Assembly (NCBI GenBank): GCA_046497485.1
Contig: JAWOFP010000042.1
Coordinates: 1-34,233 of the forward strand
Reading direction: 5' to 3'
Length of the DNA: 34,233 nt
Origin: Candidatus Nanohaloarchaea archaeon
Lineage (GTDB): Archaea > Nanohalarchaeota > Nanosalinia > Nanosalinales > Nanosalinaceae
Every line of letters starts with the position of its first letter. The stretch's first letter is position 1. Positions 3,001 to 15,000 of the stretch are shown piece after piece. The position numbers are program-made.

Positions 3001-6000
3001 GAATCATCGTATGTATAATTTACTGTTTGCATCAACGACAAACTTCCTCCACCACCCCCATCATCAATCGATTGATGATCATCTTCAGGCAGGCCTTCAA
3101 AGCTACCAGAATCAGTTAATTCTAAAGAACCAGACACAGTACCGCTTACAGACAAATTAGAAAGACCTCCAGAATCATAAACAATCTCAACATTCAATTC
3201 ATTACTGGAACCAGTTCTAGACAGATTAGGCAACTCAAAAACCTTAGAACTACCAACTCCTATTCGATTTTCCCCTGTAAACTCCTTATAAACCCATTTG
3301 CCAGTACCAGGATCAGAAACATTAACCCGAGAAACCATAATTTCACTTCCAGAAGCCCCTCTCATCTCTAGGCCTAATTCATCTTCTGAAGAAACACCAA
3401 AGTTATCAATTTGAACATCACTACCAGAAAAACCAGAAGTAGAATCAACACTCTGATTCCCAACAGTCGCAAAAATTGCTCCACCAACTACAGCAACAAC
3501 CAACAACATCCAACCATAAGTCATCAAATACTCAATCGCAGACTGACCGGAAAGACCTCTATAACTCATAAATAATGGTTTTTTTTGGCTTTATATTAGG
3601 GTTGGATTCCAAAAGATTCTTAAGATTTAAGCAATAACATATTATTAGTTATGACCACTACCGTGGATTTGCCTGATAAAGTTGAAGAAGCCTTGAAGGA
3701 GAAGGTTGAGAGCGGAGAGTATACTAGTAAGTCCGATTTTGTGAAAGAAGCCGTCAGGACTCATCTTGACAAGATTTTACTGGCTCCAAAGGATGTTGCT
3801 GATAGAGCTGAGGAAGTTAGGAATGGCGAGGTTGAAACGGTTGAATGGGAGAATGTTTCCGAAGAGATGTAAGTACTAATGGATTACGAAGTTCATAAGT
3901 CAGCTGTTGAAGAATTTCAGAGTTTACCTGATAAATTTAGTAAAGTGATTAGAAGTGCAGTTGAATCAAGGAAAAGCAGAGATAATCCTATAACCGAGCA
4001 GAGAGGTACAGGAATAGCCTATGACAATCACGGTGAACCGATCCACTACTTCAAAGTAGAAGAAAAAGGCCTAAACTATAGAGTATTTTTTAATATCAAA
4101 AATCAGAAAGTTATTCTCCTAGGAGCTAGGCCTAGAGATGACGACACTTACCTGAATCTTAGAGAGTTTACTAGGAAAATTTGAATTATATCTCGAATTC
4201 CATTCCTCTTTCTGCGACTTTGAAGCCTCTTTCCTCTAACTCTTGTCTTTCTTCGCTGTCAGGCCTGAGCGCTGGGTTGGTGTGGTTGAGGTGTGTGAAG
4301 ATTATTTCTGTATCCCAGTCTTCTGCTTTATGCATTGTTTCTTTCATGACTGGATGCGGTACTTCGTGGTACCGGTCGATTTCTTCTTCGTTCCAGAAGG
4401 TCCCGTCAATTATCGCGATGTCGGCTTCTTCGACTGATTCAAGCGTTTCTTCGCTCCATGCGTGGATATCACTCATGTAGAATAGTTTTTTGTCTTCTCC
4501 GTGAATCATGAAGCTGAGTGAGTCTGTGTTCACTCCTGTATGTGTTGTTTCTCTGGCCTCTATTTTTGCGCCTTGGATTTCCTGAGTATGTCCATCGTTG
4601 AATTCTCTGAGCTCGATATTATTTTTGTCAAGAAGTAGTCTGAATGGATCATTGTTCTGGAGATAGTGCTCAGTCTTATCTGTTACATAAACTGGTACCA
4701 TATCCGCATCCAGCGCTTCTTCTCCAAGATGTAGTAGGCCTGTAATATGTCCCAAGTGCCCATGTGAAATAAAGACTCCGTCAATGTATTCTCCATCAAT
4801 CTGGTATCGGATGTCAGGGGTTGCGTCGATTAAGTATCTTGTTGAGTTTTCTGAATCATTAGTTTTCACCATGACGGACGCGTTGTATCTTTGTTTTCTT
4901 GGATCCTCTCTCGCTGCTTCACATATATCGCAGTCGCAGCCTAGATGAGGTACTCCTCCGTCTTGAACTGTTCCTAGAACTTCTACTTTCATTCATGTAA
5001 CCCCCTTGAATCGGATAATTCCTATTGGTGAGATAAATGATAAAAACCCTCTCCGTGCCTATGGGACTGATATAAAACTTGGAGGCCTCAAACTCTATAC
5101 AAGCCGGGATGACAGAGCGGCCTTATGTGATCGCCTGCAAAGCGATTTACCCGGGTTCAAATCCCGGTCCCGGCTTATTCATATTAACCTATTATGCCTG
5201 TGACTTTTAAGGCGGAGTCTTCTTTGGTAGCCATTACTAGAGGCTACAAAAAATGGGAATACACAACAAGAAAGACAGAATTAAATCGAGACTCCAAAAA
5301 GTCAAACACTCTGAAAACCTCTCAGAATCAGATAAGGACTACTTCCAGGAGGTCCACAAATGGTTGAAAAAAGGAAGTAGAAGCGATAGCAGGGTAGAAA
5401 GATACCTAAGCAGCTTACATTCTATATTAAGGTACCACGATTTCGATCTTCAGCCTTTAACTCAAGAAAAGTTCGATGAGATTCTTTTCTCAATAGAAAA
5501 CAGCGATTACAAGAAACGCGGTCAAGGCGAATATAGCCCTGCTACAAAGGCAGAGTACCGCAAGTTAATGAAAAGACTTTGTATAAAAGAAGATTCTGAG
5601 CATATCTTGCCTAAAGATAACCAAGGAAATATAGATTTCAAGACTCATGTATCGAAGAGCGAAATGAAGAAGACTAGGCCTGATCAGCTTCCTTCAGTAG
5701 AGGATTCTAAGAAAATCGCACAGAAAATTGAGGAGCAGAGTTCTGAAGGAACTGTTCTCAGAAATCTTTCATTATTCTATGTTATTTATGAATCAGGAGC
5801 TCGTATAGGGGAAGTGCTTGAAATCCGTAAAAGAGATGTAGAAATCCTTGATGAGAAAAGTATCAAGATCTACATTACAGGAAACAAAGATTCAAATGAC
5901 AGAGAAAACTTGTTTGTAGTTTCAGCACCTATTCTCAAAAGATACTTCCAAAATCATCCTGAGCCAGATAATCCTGATGCTTATCTTTTCTGTAATATTA

Positions 6001-12000: not shown

Positions 12001-15000
12001 GAGATTAGAAAAGAAGAAAGAAGGAGTTTACATAGTTACAGAAAGAGGTGAACAAAAGGCCAAAATAATCACTGGAGAGTATGAACCTTCTGGGATGATG
12101 AATGATGAAAGGAGTAGCATGATGGCTAATGTTATAGAAGTAAAAGACTTTGAGGAAGCCAAGAGAGAGTTTAATGAATTTGCAAGCGGAAATTCAGGAG
12201 GAGGCCTAATTTAAAAAATATTTTATCTAGACTATCGACCTCAAATATCCTTGATATAATTTGTTATTATTGTAACAATTAACATTGTTTACGCAGTTTA
12301 ATTTATTATTAACATTAGAAATAATAGCTTTCGTAGTATTACGAAACCTTTGGGCTTTATTTTCTCTAAAAACATTTATATGCAGTCTAATGTAAATATG
12401 TAGTAGAGCATGACCGACGACCAAGTACAATCATGCTCCCAGAAAAGTATGGGAGCTTCAAGTTCAAATAACCAGGTCTCAGAAGACCTAAAACCGCTTA
12501 AAAAATACTATGAGGAAGATCATATCTCTAGAGCTGAGTCTTTAGGCAGCGAATCAGTTTTTAATCCTAGAGCCATCCTGCTATATGCCATTGATGTAGG
12601 GCTTAGAGAGTTCGAGAAATTCGGTGTAAAACACAGTAAGTTTAGGCAGGATATTCGAGAAGATAACTTTGAGGAATATCGTAACTACCTTATAGACATG
12701 TTAGGCAAAGGAATTGACTTTGACGAAGTTGATTTGAAGGATTTGGAAAAGGCCTATGAACATCTGCATGGAGAGAATATCAGAGAGATGGTAGGCAGAG
12801 CACCAGGTGATCAAAGTGGCGTATGAATCACAAGAGATCCATTCTAGAAGAGTTATCAATGAATACAGTATGAAAAGCAGTGTTCCAGAGAGTTTAGAAG
12901 ATAGTGTTCAGGGCTTAGAGAACTTGATGGAGGTTCTTTCAGAGCTTCCATCTGAGTGGATAGATTCAACTAGAGTCTACGAAGATCTTAAAAATAAAGA
13001 CGGTAGGAGTCCTTCCAGGAGAACGATTAGGCGCTGGATCAATAAGCTGGAAAGTAAAGGAATGGTTAAGAAGAGAGGAACTACTAGATCGACTGAAGTT
13101 TTTTCACTTGTAGAGAAATAATCCATTATTCTTTCTATTTTCTTTATTTTTTACCCACATCTTACCATCTAGGGTAGGGGTTAAGGCCTAGATATGTGCT
13201 TTAAAGAACTGACAATTGTTTATATTCAATTCCTTTCTCTTATTTCTTATTATTTTAGTTTAGCTTATAGAGAAACTTCCAAATCTTAATGTAAGTTCCT
13301 TTCTCTCCATTCTCAAGCTTCGAATTGTATTTACCAAAGAAACCCATTATTCTGAGGCCTCTTGAAGCGCTAGATTGCCTTTATTATTGAGTTTCCATTC
13401 AAGCTCCTGGCCATCTTCCCAATCTTTGGCTTCTACCATTGATTTAGGCACTGTGATAACTGCTTGACCAGTGTGATCATTTATCTGAAGTTTGTAACTC
13501 ATACATGTATATCTAAGGTTAAACTACTTAAGTATTGGGTACGAAATAACTAATATACTACGGCATTAAAGGCTTCCAAAGGAGCGCCCGGTCCCGGCTT
13601 TAATCTATTAATCCATGTTCTTCCATCAGATCTCCGGCATACTTCTGACCTTTACTTATACTATTACTATGTTTATATCGTCTGCCTTCCTTTGTTTCTC
13701 CATTGAAATTTTCTGAGGCCTCTTTCTTTTGCAGAAGCTCGAGAGCTATTATCTCGCCTTCGTCCTCTCTGTATCCTGGAACTTTACCTGCATCAACTAA
13801 TATCAGTCTGTGCCCTCCATTGATTCTGGTTTTAGTGAGCGGTTTCCAGTTACCGCTATAAGTGTCAATTATCTCTTCCAGCTCCAAGTCCAGCTCTAGG
13901 TTTGACTCTATAGTTTCAAGCCTATTGTTTACTTCGCTCCAAGAAACAGCTGAGGCCTGTTCTACATCGGATTCTAGTTTTGGAGTCATCGTTATTCTGC
14001 TTTCTTCTTCCTGGTTATTCTGCAAGAAAGCTTGTTGGATCAGTTTAAGATTTCTCATTTCTGAAGTAGAGTTTCTAATATCTTGGGCGTCCGCATAAGT
14101 AACTAAATTTGCAGTTTCAGGATTCATTTGCCTAAGCTCATATTCTCCGTCTTCCTCCAAAACAAGGATCTCCGAATTTTCTTCGTAAGGCCTTATCCAT
14201 GTACAGTTAGGTCCTTCAATTTCAGAATGTTCAAGACCTGGAGCATAACCAATAAACCTGTAGCTTTTCTGTTCTGTATCAGAATCTAGAATAGATGTTG
14301 ATCCTACCGTTTCAGTTTCGATTCTGACATCTCCTGAGTCCTGATCGAACCATAATTTTCTGGCATCAGTCTCAAAATCAAGTTCAATGGACTCTACAAA
14401 TTTTTCAGGGCTTCCTTTGTCCAATTGAAATTCCTGTCCCTCAGAACTAATGTATTTCACATCATAATCAAATACTTCTTCATCTGGCAGATTAATCCTA
14501 TCTCTGACATGTTTTCTCATCTGACGCGGATCTTGTTGAAGTCTCTGATCGACTTCTTCCGTATCCATTCCAGGTATTAGAGGAACTGACACATATATTC
14601 GTCACAGCGCAGTTATAAATAAGTTATGTGCTGGTTCAAGTAACTAGCTGTAATCCGCCCAGTAGATAGAAAAGCGCTCCAATCAATGCCACTACTCCGC
14701 CGCCAATTAAAGCTCCTTTAAGGCCTGCGTAAGGATCTTTTAGTTCTTCAAACTTGTCGGCGAAATCCAGTACAGTGGACATATTTCCGCTTAACAGAAT
14801 TACTTTCTGATATCTTCTACCGTCATCCAAGGCCTCTATCTTGTAGGATCCTTCTTCTAGCTCGACTGAGCCTTTCCCATCTAGTTCTCCTACTTTCTCA
14901 TGGTAGTCTTTGAAGGCCAAGCTGTAGATATTGAACTTTACCTCTTCTCTATTATTCTGGGCCTTTACTGATAGCTTTGGCAAAAATCAGACACCTATCC

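Follow-up and report, generated by a model that had tools for sequence, protein, structure and literature searches.

An 8,424-bp integrated element, probably plasmid-like, at the sole tRNA-Cys gene found in a nanohaloarchaeon

pXQ1, pSSVi, and pSSVx are integrative pRN-family plasmids and satellites of the Sulfolobales. The replication proteins of this family carry a prim-pol domain, and the SSV-type integrase is split upon integration. The element analyzed here, found in a 34,233-nt contig of a Candidatus Nanohaloarchaea archaeon (JAWOFP010000042.1, the whole of which is referred to as the window), is likewise small, capsid-less, and inserted at a tRNA gene, and it encodes a CopG-type ribbon-helix-helix (RHH) protein, one large replication helicase, and a tyrosine integrase. 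In contrast to the pRN family, a primase domain was not detected, the integrase gene remains uninterrupted with att located outside it, and sequence relatedness does not go beyond the family level. SaPI/PICI satellites and phage P4 with its alpha protein combine an integrase with a D5_N-SF3 helicase that has a C-terminal DNA-binding-like domain, as does our element with its putative D5_N, but these systems are bacterial, and no packaging genes were seen in the element. The P4 alpha protein also includes a primase part. The integrases of Geoglobus acetivorans pleomorphic virus 1 and ThalV2, archaeal pleomorphic (pleolipovirus-like) proviruses, show full-length similarity (26-27% identity) to the element integrase, and both records have the integrase gene close to their start, at most about 200 nt away; however, these are virus genomes of 13-16 kb, whereas the element has no recognisable virion gene. 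From the same host phylum, a 2025 study on nanohaloarchaeal viruses, which also describes pSSVx, presents viruses, the provirus ANPV-1, and plasmid-like SRCE satellites, and reports tyrosine integrases and plasmid-type replication proteins (bioRxiv 10.1101/2025.02.15.638363), and mobile elements of this phylum are therefore no longer "barely known", as the initial annotation had put it. The elements of that study contain signature genes of virions or occur as free circles, 2.7-9.0 kb in size, and the abstract and passages considered here describe no tRNA-integrated element with an integrase and a helicase but without virion genes. Our element is an ordinary kind of mobile element in a little-charted archaeal group.

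The integration target is an intact tRNA-Cys(GCA) gene on the forward strand (5102-5176, ARAGORN), the only tRNA-Cys among the 29 tRNAs called genome-wide. It had been noted that the end of this gene is repeated once, and this was borne out at the genome level. With up to one mismatch allowed, the 14-nt core CCCGGTCCCGGCTT matched at exactly two positions, attL and attR (Table 1), two matches were obtained in none of 100 shuffles, and a scan for exact matches of at least 11 nt to positions 5090-5260 in the 968-kb genome (66 contigs, both strands) found the attR copy as the only second copy of the 14-mer. Beyond the core, the similarity of the element ends amounts to 23 of 30 nt. Judging from acceptor-stem pairing, the tRNA probably ends with discriminator T5175, so that the repeat would overshoot the tRNA by 1 nt. 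The G+C content is 0.380 in 5177-13586, compared with 0.418 in the remainder of the contig and 0.415 in the genome, in agreement with the previously noted low G+C of this stretch.

An empty-site check, which the initial annotation had named as missing, was positive. In a related metagenome contig (L025), a beta-lactamase-fold gene and tRNA-Cys are directly joined to a homologue of window positions 13587-15305. Positions 133-1136 of this contig align with 4190-5192 of the window (87%) and positions 1107-2833 with 13587-15305 (80%), and the two alignments share exactly the repeat. Because of this exact overlap, both the assignment of attL and attR and the 8.4-kb extent are correct, and the earlier caveat that the right end could lie elsewhere no longer applies. 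According to these alignments, the element has exact ends and a length of 8,424 bp. In L026 and G004, no element is present between tRNA-Cys and the block of a 115-aa ORF, NUDIX, and CysRS. As the nearest relatives found (80-87% identity) lack the element, its insertion postdates the split from them. A variant with about 95% identity that spans attL was found in a run from another study.

Table 1. Features of the element and its right flank (window positions; aa, amino acids; RHH, ribbon-helix-helix).
Feature	Position	Strand	Matches and remarks
attL core	5163..5176	+	14 nt, identical to attR (14/14)
Promoter-like box 1	5205..5225	+	TATA-like TTTTAA + 17-nt box AAGGCGGAGTCTTCTTT; TATA start 48 nt before integrase ATG
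Tyrosine integrase, 417 aa	5253..6506	+	PF00589 1.9e-16; phrog_1 2.5e-21
Promoter-like box 2	6523..6543	+	TATA start 35 nt before 41-aa RHH ORF
41-aa RHH (CopG-type) protein	6558..6683	+	PF01402 3.7e-6, 27.1 bits, cut-off 20.5
Hairpin, 11-bp stem	6804..6832	.	Between RHH gene and next ORF
123-aa protein	6850..7221	+	Weak RHH/MazE-like N-terminus (NF050104 0.0022, below cut-off); C-terminal Cys4 motif
D5/P4-type SF3 helicase, 518 aa	7263..8819	+	DUF5906 8.8e-16; D5_N 3e-4; TIGR01613 6.4e-42
54-aa ORF	8803..8967	+	No match (Pfam, PHROG); coding status unsure
74-aa winged-HTH protein	9038..9262	+	Several HTH families 1e-4 to 4e-3, all below cut-offs
78-aa winged-HTH (MarR-like) protein	9244..9480	+	MarR_2 0.001, below cut-off
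162-aa acidic protein	9501..9989	+	Weak C-terminal HTH (HTH_Crp_2 4.6e-4, residues 137-160, below cut-off)
Iteron-like repeat, 13-nt unit x2.9	10126..10164	.	In 190-nt gap ahead of box 3
Promoter-like box 3	10156..10176	+	1 mismatch; TATA start 30 nt before 113-aa ORF ATG
113-aa ORF	10186..10527	+	No family; Atlas protein begins at same ATG
Promoter-like box 4	10560..10580	+	TATA start 30 nt before 59-aa ORF ATG
59-aa protein	10590..10769	+	One strongly hydrophobic N-terminal segment
84-aa acidic ORF	10920..11174	+	No match
Mrr-type nuclease gene, membrane-anchored, frameshifted	11255..11958	+	Mrr_cat; PADLOC PDC-S02 3e-13
80-aa ORF	11972..12214	+	69-79% nt matches in 6 other genomes
138-aa ORF	12410..12826	+	No match
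104-aa winged-HTH protein	12807..13121	+	HTH_12 1.4e-4, 22.1 bits, cut-off 21.4
51-aa AbrB/MazE-like protein, right end	13347..13502	-	PF04014 0.0016, below cut-off
attR core	13587..13600	+	14 nt
330-aa acidic ORF	13600..14592	-	Right flank, outside element; adjoins empty site in L025

The integrase gene, already recognized directly after tRNA-Cys, starts 77 nt past the attL core; its Pfam and PHROG matches were reproduced, and the ORF is intact and uninterrupted, with att outside of it. When aligned to the XerA structures 4A8E and 5HXY, the R, HxxR, H, and Y positions were conserved (catalytic motifs GARIGE, HVFR, GH, and IYT). The catalytic domain thus resembles that of archaeal XerA (NF040815, 5.5e-19; 4A8E, 1.2e-8), but with 68.7 bits the NF040815 match stays well short of the equivalog cut-off of 220, and an extra C-terminal zinc ribbon (CxxC...CxxC) is present. 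Because of this low score, the zinc ribbon, and the linkage to a tRNA and an insertion, the protein is an element integrase and not a chromosome resolvase. Of 70 genomes from the phylum, 26 contain homologues, frequently directly after a tRNA gene. In virus records, the closest integrases are those of two Archaeoglobi pleomorphic viruses, BK065156.1 (25.8% identity across the whole query, 4e-30) and BK065158.1 (27.2% identity, 3e-28).

The large replication protein had been described as a D5/P4-type primase-helicase. The matches to the SF3/P4 helicase family were reproduced, but neither Pfam nor NCBIfam gave a family match to a primase domain (AEP/prim-pol or Toprim), and only about 110 residues lie upstream of D5_N. 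The architecture comprises a small N-terminal domain, a putative D5_N, a P-loop core, and a C-terminal winged-helix-like domain. DUF5906 matched with 59 bits (cut-off 27.6) and D5_N with 21.5 bits, just under its cut-off of 22.4, and several homologues are annotated with PF08706; the P4-family C-terminal domain TIGR01613 covers residues 179-482. The Walker A residues G259, T261, D262, G264, K265, S266, and T267 are invariant in a 28-sequence alignment. In the structure model, residues 1-65 form a small domain of three helices and two strands. The best fold matches were the SaPI5 Rep helicase, followed by parts of the poxvirus D5 and ASFV helicases, with TM-scores of just 0.36-0.42 for the whole multi-domain model. 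An earlier pattern scan had missed this protein in IMG/VR; an alignment-based scan recovered relatives there. A homologue with 52% identity is assigned in the protein database to Candidatus Nanohalovita haloferacivicina.

The element encodes two RHH and four HTH proteins, and the HTH matches of the initial annotation were reproduced with Pfam, PHROG, and NCBIfam. The Cys4 motif of the 123-aa protein was seen in the translation. A 97-aa ORF at 6503-6796 is probably not a gene; the 41-aa RHH ORF was assigned instead. The 17-nt box has four matches genome-wide (up to 2 mismatches), all of them on the forward strand and inside the element. As its ATG is only 30 nt from the TATA start, the 113-aa ORF is probably leaderless. 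A replication origin was not identified in the element.

Searches of PHROGs (18 ORFs), Pfam (23 ORFs), and NCBIfam, libraries that cover archaeal viruses poorly, yielded no capsid, terminase, or other virion gene. For this reason, an integrated plasmid or capsid-less element, as originally proposed, is the best reading, and we consider it probable that the element is a site-specifically integrated, plasmid-like mobile element.

The "split" Mrr-type nuclease bears on the question of whether the element is still active. Its Mrr_cat matches were reproduced, with profile positions 1-46 (3e-9) and 46-114 (4.7e-16) in two frames (5' frame 11255-11743, 3' frame 11713-11958), but the split reflects a frameshift of 1 nt close to 11712 that interrupts the domain. 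In runs X2 and X4, the variants contain one extra G after 11712 and are not frameshifted, and genome G057 encodes an intact 233-aa homologue. In other genomes, the 80-aa ORF accompanies the Mrr gene, which it adjoins in G057. Because of the frameshift, some decay has occurred, and the element could be an inactive relic, a single integration that became a fixed, decaying island after loss of excision and replication. This would also fit the decayed relative G053:C50, in which integrase fragments with a stop codon are separated from an AbrB-like piece by about 1.5 kb, and the results for the excised form: neither the circle joint (13586 to 5177) nor the excision joint of this strain (5176 to 13601) was present among the assembled contigs of four runs, although such contigs drop rare forms. 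However, the integrase, the helicase, and the two att cores have remained intact, each of the four boxes is conserved, and the insertion took place after the split from the nearest relatives found, making a relic unlikely.

The helicase could also point to a virus satellite of the PICI, pSSVx, or P4 type, which would be induced by a helper, replicate with its own helicase, and be packaged in helper particles. Size and layout are similar (an integrase, small regulators, a self-contained helicase, small ORFs without assigned function, and no capsid), SaPI5 Rep was the best fold match, and plasmid-derived satellites with primase-helicases have been proposed for nanohaloarchaeal spindle viruses in the parts of the literature considered here. 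Furthermore, the same helicase family is encoded with 42% identity in L060, a head-tailed virus contig with a large terminase, an adaptor, and a neck protein. Yet the helicase is the sole gene that this contig shares with the element, a small terminase, a capsid-remodelling gene, a spindle-virus capsid protein, and an AAA+ ATPase were not found in the element, and no helper virus was identified. We therefore regard a satellite as rather improbable. Similarly doubtful is the specific version of an archaeal PICI counterpart, a satellite that is integrated at a tRNA gene and belongs to head-tailed (or other) viruses of nanohaloarchaea, in which the self-loading SF3 helicase would replicate the element after induction and some of the small ORFs would take over helper particles. 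If it were true, the cell, a symbiont in its own right, would be subject to a further level of parasitism.

It is very unlikely that the element is a provirus of a small pleomorphic or spindle-shaped archaeal virus with structural proteins too divergent to be recognized. The closest virus-record integrases, the eight of about 17 ORFs without any match, and the existence of nanohaloarchaeal pleomorphic proviruses and integrase-bearing spindle viruses, as far as described, would be compatible with this, but apart from the integrase and helicase the longest ORF has 162 aa, hence there is no spike-sized protein, the only membrane-bound candidates are the 59-aa ORF and the Mrr N-terminus, and the helicase is the sole NTPase. 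A chance repeat beside an island acquired otherwise, for which only the shortness of 14 nt speaks, is refuted by the shuffles, the uniqueness in the genome, and the empty-site junction exactly on the repeat.

As a plasmid-like element, its circular form would have attP between the AbrB-like and integrase genes, which diverge, with the AbrB-like gene transcribed away from attP and opposite to the integrase gene. This attP would consist of the 14-nt core and about 16 nt that resemble the host site imperfectly. The integrase would recombine attP with the tRNA end, thereby restoring the tRNA. The circle would replicate with its own SF3 helicase, whose winged-helix-like domain could bind an origin, and would rely on the host primase and polymerase. 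The four TATA-plus-box motifs are predicted to drive the genes for the integrase and the RHH protein as well as two blocks of genes farther downstream, and are probably controlled by one of the RHH, HTH, or AbrB proteins of the element. The Mrr nuclease and its 80-aa partner would be cargo, possibly a defence module, inactivated in this copy.

The locus provides a precisely delimited integrase/attP/attB set for Nanohaloarchaeota, with a 14-nt core, a target that is the only tRNA-Cys detected genome-wide, and a known empty site. With a candidate module for autonomous replication and a compact native promoter box present in four copies, it contains what an integrating or shuttle vector would require. 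The integrase family is common in the phylum, and the 52%-identical helicase homologue comes from Candidatus Nanohalovita haloferacivicina, which is described among "novel cultivated nanohaloarchaea", so that tests are feasible. A plasmid-like integrative class would join the viruses and satellites already described for nanohaloarchaeal symbionts.

A distant relative of about 13 kb is located at an intron-containing tRNA-Met in genome G022, with an empty site in G057. It has the same layout (integrase, RHH, helicase, HTH, and AbrB-like genes). The 104-aa winged-HTH protein shares 28% identity with the C-terminus of a 231-aa ORF in that element (blastp, 1.8e-9), and the 51-aa AbrB-like protein is 62% identical to the product of its end gene and has DNA matches in four other genomes.

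The tRNA-Cys(GCA) gene and the 14-nt repeat CCCGGTCCCGGCTT, which the initial annotation had taken as the ends of an integrative element, were both found again, and the search of the whole genome (967,558 bases in 66 contigs, the window being the entire contig C59) showed that the downstream copy is the sole second one. Within the window, no further copy was detected even with one mismatch, and among the exact matches of at least 11 nt to 5090-5260, on both strands of all contigs, the 14-mer recurred at 13587 only. None of 100 dinucleotide-preserving shuffles contained two matches, and the similarity of both ends reaches past the core (23 of 30 nt). 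As acceptor-stem pairing suggests that the tRNA ends with the discriminator T5175, the repeat would extend one base beyond the tRNA. ARAGORN without introns, the run that was used, gave 29 tRNAs in the genome; with introns allowed on the whole multi-FASTA, it gave 20 and missed tRNA-Cys. The low G+C content reported for the element was also recovered, with 0.380 in 5177-13586 against 0.418 in the remaining contig and 0.415 in the genome.

Locations of the features discussed in the text
Feature	Sequence	Position	Remarks
Variable stretch left of the tRNA	window	2361-4184
tRNA-Cys(GCA)	window	5102-5176	ARAGORN
attL	window	5163-5176	14-nt repeat
Integrase	window	5253-6506
Ribbon-helix-helix ORF	window	6558-6683	41 aa
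Helicase	window	7263-8819	518 aa
Mrr gene and 80-aa ORF	window	11283-12204	frame break at ~11712
attR	window	13587-13600	14-nt repeat
330-aa ORF	window	13600-14592
Cysteinyl-tRNA synthetase	window	15582-16973
Second integrase of the source genome	C28 (L014)	547-1917	404 aa
Shared tRNA-Thr(TGT) region	C25	10600-11731
Shared tRNA-Thr(TGT) region	C28	1829-2514
Related element of G022	L024 (G022:C1:312000-331999)	5183-18210	reverse strand
Empty G022-type site	G057:C1	~497397-497680
Decayed relative	L075	G053:C50:14485-16937

Relatives, in which the initial annotation had not looked for an empty site, were now compared. A 43-nt stretch of the tRNA-Cys gene has exact matches in two metagenome contigs, L025 and L026. 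Positions 133-1136 of L025 correspond to window 4190-5192 (87%) and positions 1107-2833 to window 13587-15305 (80%), and the overlap of the two alignments is exactly the repeat. In a four-way alignment, the L025 sequence past the tRNA continues into the attR flank of the window. L025 is the uninterrupted site, which fixes the element size at 8,424 bp; with the junction on the repeat, the proposed attL, attR and 8.4-kb extent stand. There is good support for integration at the tRNA end. In L026, about 510 nt after the tRNA, a homologue of window 14690-24179 follows, without the element and without the 330-aa ORF. The gene order in G004, a genome of the same genus, is an Orc1/Cdc6-like gene, tRNA-Cys, an unrelated 181-aa ORF, a homologue of the 115-aa ORF, NUDIX and cysteinyl-tRNA synthetase. 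From the comparison of L025, L026 and G004, the 330-aa ORF belongs to a variable host flank outside the element; it is very acidic, has no family match, is present in L025 and absent from L026 and G004, and has only weak partial matches among 40 relatives, in three genomes. The left side of the tRNA is variable too, as the listed stretch has no counterpart in L026; encoded there are a Gly-rich protein of 402 aa, whose hydrophobic N-terminus resembles that of pilins, and a toxin-antitoxin-like pair of a ribbon-helix-helix and a 101-aa gene. The tRNA-Cys and cysteinyl-tRNA synthetase genes are near neighbours in relatives (~1.5 kb in G004) and are pushed apart to 10 kb here by the element.

The integrase gene lies right after tRNA-Cys as described before, with matches to PF00589 (1.9e-16) and PHROG integrase families. 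Alignment with the archaeal XerA structures 4A8E and 5HXY places the Arg, His-x-x-Arg, His and Tyr residues, and the protein carries a C-terminal Cys4 extension. With its gene uninterrupted and beginning 77 nt past the core, the integrase is not of the self-splitting type. Relatives at E <=1e-15 occur in 26 of 70 genomes of the phylum, the weaker of which may include chromosomal XerA. Of 30 integrase loci examined, that of the window among them, 14 have a same-strand tRNA gene immediately upstream and one more pairs a truncated integrase with a neighbouring tRNA; several of the others are cut by contig ends, and there may be false calls among the intron-containing tRNAs. The closest integrases in virus records are those of two pleomorphic viruses of Archaeoglobi (26-27% identity, full length). 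The source genome encodes a second integrase on contig C28 (34% identical, same C-terminal Cys4 motif), directly behind an intron-containing tRNA-Thr(TGT); as the contig stops 546 nt past the gene, the remainder of a possible second element is missing. Contigs C25 and C28 share this tRNA (97.8%) and a neighbouring gene (76.5%); at this locus, two related strains or species may have been binned together, in which case C25 would be a site without the integrase. In a decayed relative in genome G053, the integrase is reduced to fragments interrupted by a stop (57-67% identity), and an AbrB-like piece lies ~1.5 kb away.

The assignment of a D5/P4-type primase-helicase was borne out for the helicase part, by a DUF5906 match, by TIGR01613 (C-terminal part of the P4 family) over residues 179-482 and by Walker A residues that are invariant across a 28-sequence alignment of relatives; D5_N scored just below the cut-off. 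However, no primase domain was found in the protein, and 'primase-helicase' is thus a family-derived name and not a property shown here. In the AlphaFold model (mean pLDDT 73.4), a small N-terminal domain is followed by D5_N, a P-loop core of poor model quality and a helix-plus-hairpin domain at the C-terminus. The best fold match of the model was the SaPI5 Rep helicase, followed by ASFV PrimPol chains and, lower, mpox E5 and D5 helicases, all with low TM-scores (0.36-0.42); a sequence search of the PDB gave no match. At E <=1e-20, 40 database clusters were found (39-92% identity), nearly all of unnamed metagenome proteins and two named nanohaloarchaeal, beyond which identity falls to <=33%. 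The best matches in known phage and plasmid records are <=27% identical, with the best plasmid E-values for haloarchaeal plasmids and one Alicyclobacillus plasmid, and helicase matches at E <=1e-10 occur in 8 of the 70 genomes. Pattern scans that used only this helicase sequence gave no relative from genome_contigs or, as in the initial annotation, from IMG/VR; an alignment-based scan of IMG/VR did find a 42% identical helicase, on contig L060 (27.8 kb, G+C 0.40). This is a head-tailed virus contig that also encodes a large terminase, head-tail adaptor, neck protein, RNA ligase and DNA methyltransferase.

The best helicase match among the 70 genomes (52% identity) lies in genome G022 inside a ~13 kb insertion with the same order of integrase (20% identity), small ORFs, helicase, HTH protein (28%) and AbrB-like end gene (62%). 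This insertion lies directly against the 3' end of an intron-containing tRNA-Met, and the 11-nt repeat TGGGAAAGCCG is found at both of its ends, 13,017 nt apart. In the complete genome G057 of the same genus, the alignment places the two flanks 11 nt from each other. The left junction is not as clean as that of the window, with ~75 nt between the homology end and the repeat that have no G057 counterpart. A tRNA-Val was rejected as the site, no repeat being found there. In the circle of either element, the AbrB-like and integrase genes would be divergent and flank attP.

Calling a 97-aa ORF after the integrase was probably a mistake; the 41-aa ribbon-helix-helix ORF in another frame, which scores above the Pfam cut-off, takes its place. 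The previously noted HTH protein proved to be one of four such small proteins, accompanied by a second, weak ribbon-helix-helix protein that bears a Cys4 motif and by a 51-aa AbrB/MazE-like gene at the right end, on the minus strand; these matches are mostly under curated cut-offs. As for the split Mrr-type nuclease, the Mrr match does fall in two frames (profile positions 1-46 versus 46-114). G057 has a homologue of 233 aa that is intact and has the same 80-aa ORF behind it, and contigs of sequencing runs X2 and X4 have one extra G behind 11712 that, by our reading, would join the two frames. The Mrr gene and the 80-aa ORF have 69-79% nt identity in six genomes of other genera (G057, G047, G013, G053, G056, G006) and look like a mobile two-gene module, possibly with a defence role (PADLOC PDC-S02). 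PADLOC detected only the Mrr halves on the element, plus weak HTH and coiled-coil matches. No spacer evidence for CRISPR targeting was obtained; the inspection of short matches from a phylum-wide search covered a single place, L081, where there is no repeat array.

The best reading of the stretch, and in our view a fairly probable one, is an integrative plasmid-like element, which upholds the initial interpretation as an integrated plasmid or capsid-less element. Such an element would form an attP circle and replicate by its own helicase with host primase. Assembled contigs of four runs (X1-X4) from two studies were placed on window 3000-16500. Among the joints listed, none connects the two ends of the element, which says little on rare circles as the data are assembled contigs. 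The joints 5176->15038 and 5177->15248 stem from relatives with other arrangements. An X3 contig spanning 5148-6485 with 68 differences represents a ~95% identical variant at the same attL in another study. That the element is an inactive relic is unlikely; the broken Mrr frame and the missing end joint stand on one side, the whole integrase gene on the other. A virus satellite that depends on a helper is a doubtful alternative. In its favour, a 2025 preprint on Nanohaloarchaeota describes small satellite circles that encode primase-helicases (bioRxiv 10.1101/2025.02.15.638363); against it, nothing but the helicase is common to the virus contig L060 and the element. The same preprint reports four virus groups, spindle viruses that carry an integrase, and an integrated pleomorphic provirus (bioRxiv 10.1101/2025.02.15.638363). 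A provirus with unrecognised virion proteins is very improbable here. In agreement with the earlier searches for capsid and terminase genes, no ORF matched capsid, terminase, spike or packaging families in Pfam, PHROG and NCBIfam, libraries with poor coverage of archaeal viruses. Strongly hydrophobic segments are confined, among the + strand ORFs, to the 59-aa ORF and the N-terminal part of Mrr, and the ESM Atlas yielded nothing usable on the 138-aa or the 115-aa ORF. The empty site rules out a chance repeat.

Archaea are well known to harbour small elements that sit in a tRNA gene and combine a tyrosine integrase and a CopG-type protein with one large replicative helicase, for example the pRN-family integrative plasmids. 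The present finding is solidly established and will not surprise a specialist; it is useful as a source of genetic parts. pSSVx, which is set beside the pRN-family plasmids here, is described in the 2025 preprint (bioRxiv 10.1101/2025.02.15.638363). In full-text searches and the accessible passages of the literature on the phylum, parts of that preprint among them, we found no report of an element that is integrated in a tRNA gene and has an integrase and a helicase but lacks virion genes. A 2019 paper mentions a nanohaloarchaeal integrase beside a BREX cluster. According to a paper on cultivated nanohaloarchaea, genomic islands were not detected in Ca. Nanohalovita; as a helicase homologue is named from that species in the protein database, this suggests that the statement merits a second look.

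With <=2 mismatches, the 17-nt box AAGGCGGAGTCTTCTTT has four copies in the whole genome, all in the element and on the + strand, and none in three shuffles of 400 kb. Each box is preceded by a TATA-like hexamer, whose start lies 48 nt (integrase), 35 nt (ribbon-helix-helix), 30 nt and 30 nt from the ATG. On general knowledge of archaeal promoters, we infer that the four boxes mark co-regulated predicted promoters, the last two with leaderless mRNAs, and the element would be regulated via these boxes. Five single exact matches in IMG/VR were dismissed as chance, none resembling the element by tblastx. A sigma-70 and terminator scan stayed at chance level, and its sigma-70 part does not apply to archaea. 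Contigs of related elements in runs X1-X4 join 6547/10209, 6485/10559 and 10593/6675, at or next to different box copies, and one of these joints skips 6548-10208 with the helicase gene; modules may be shuffled or deleted through breaks at the boxes.
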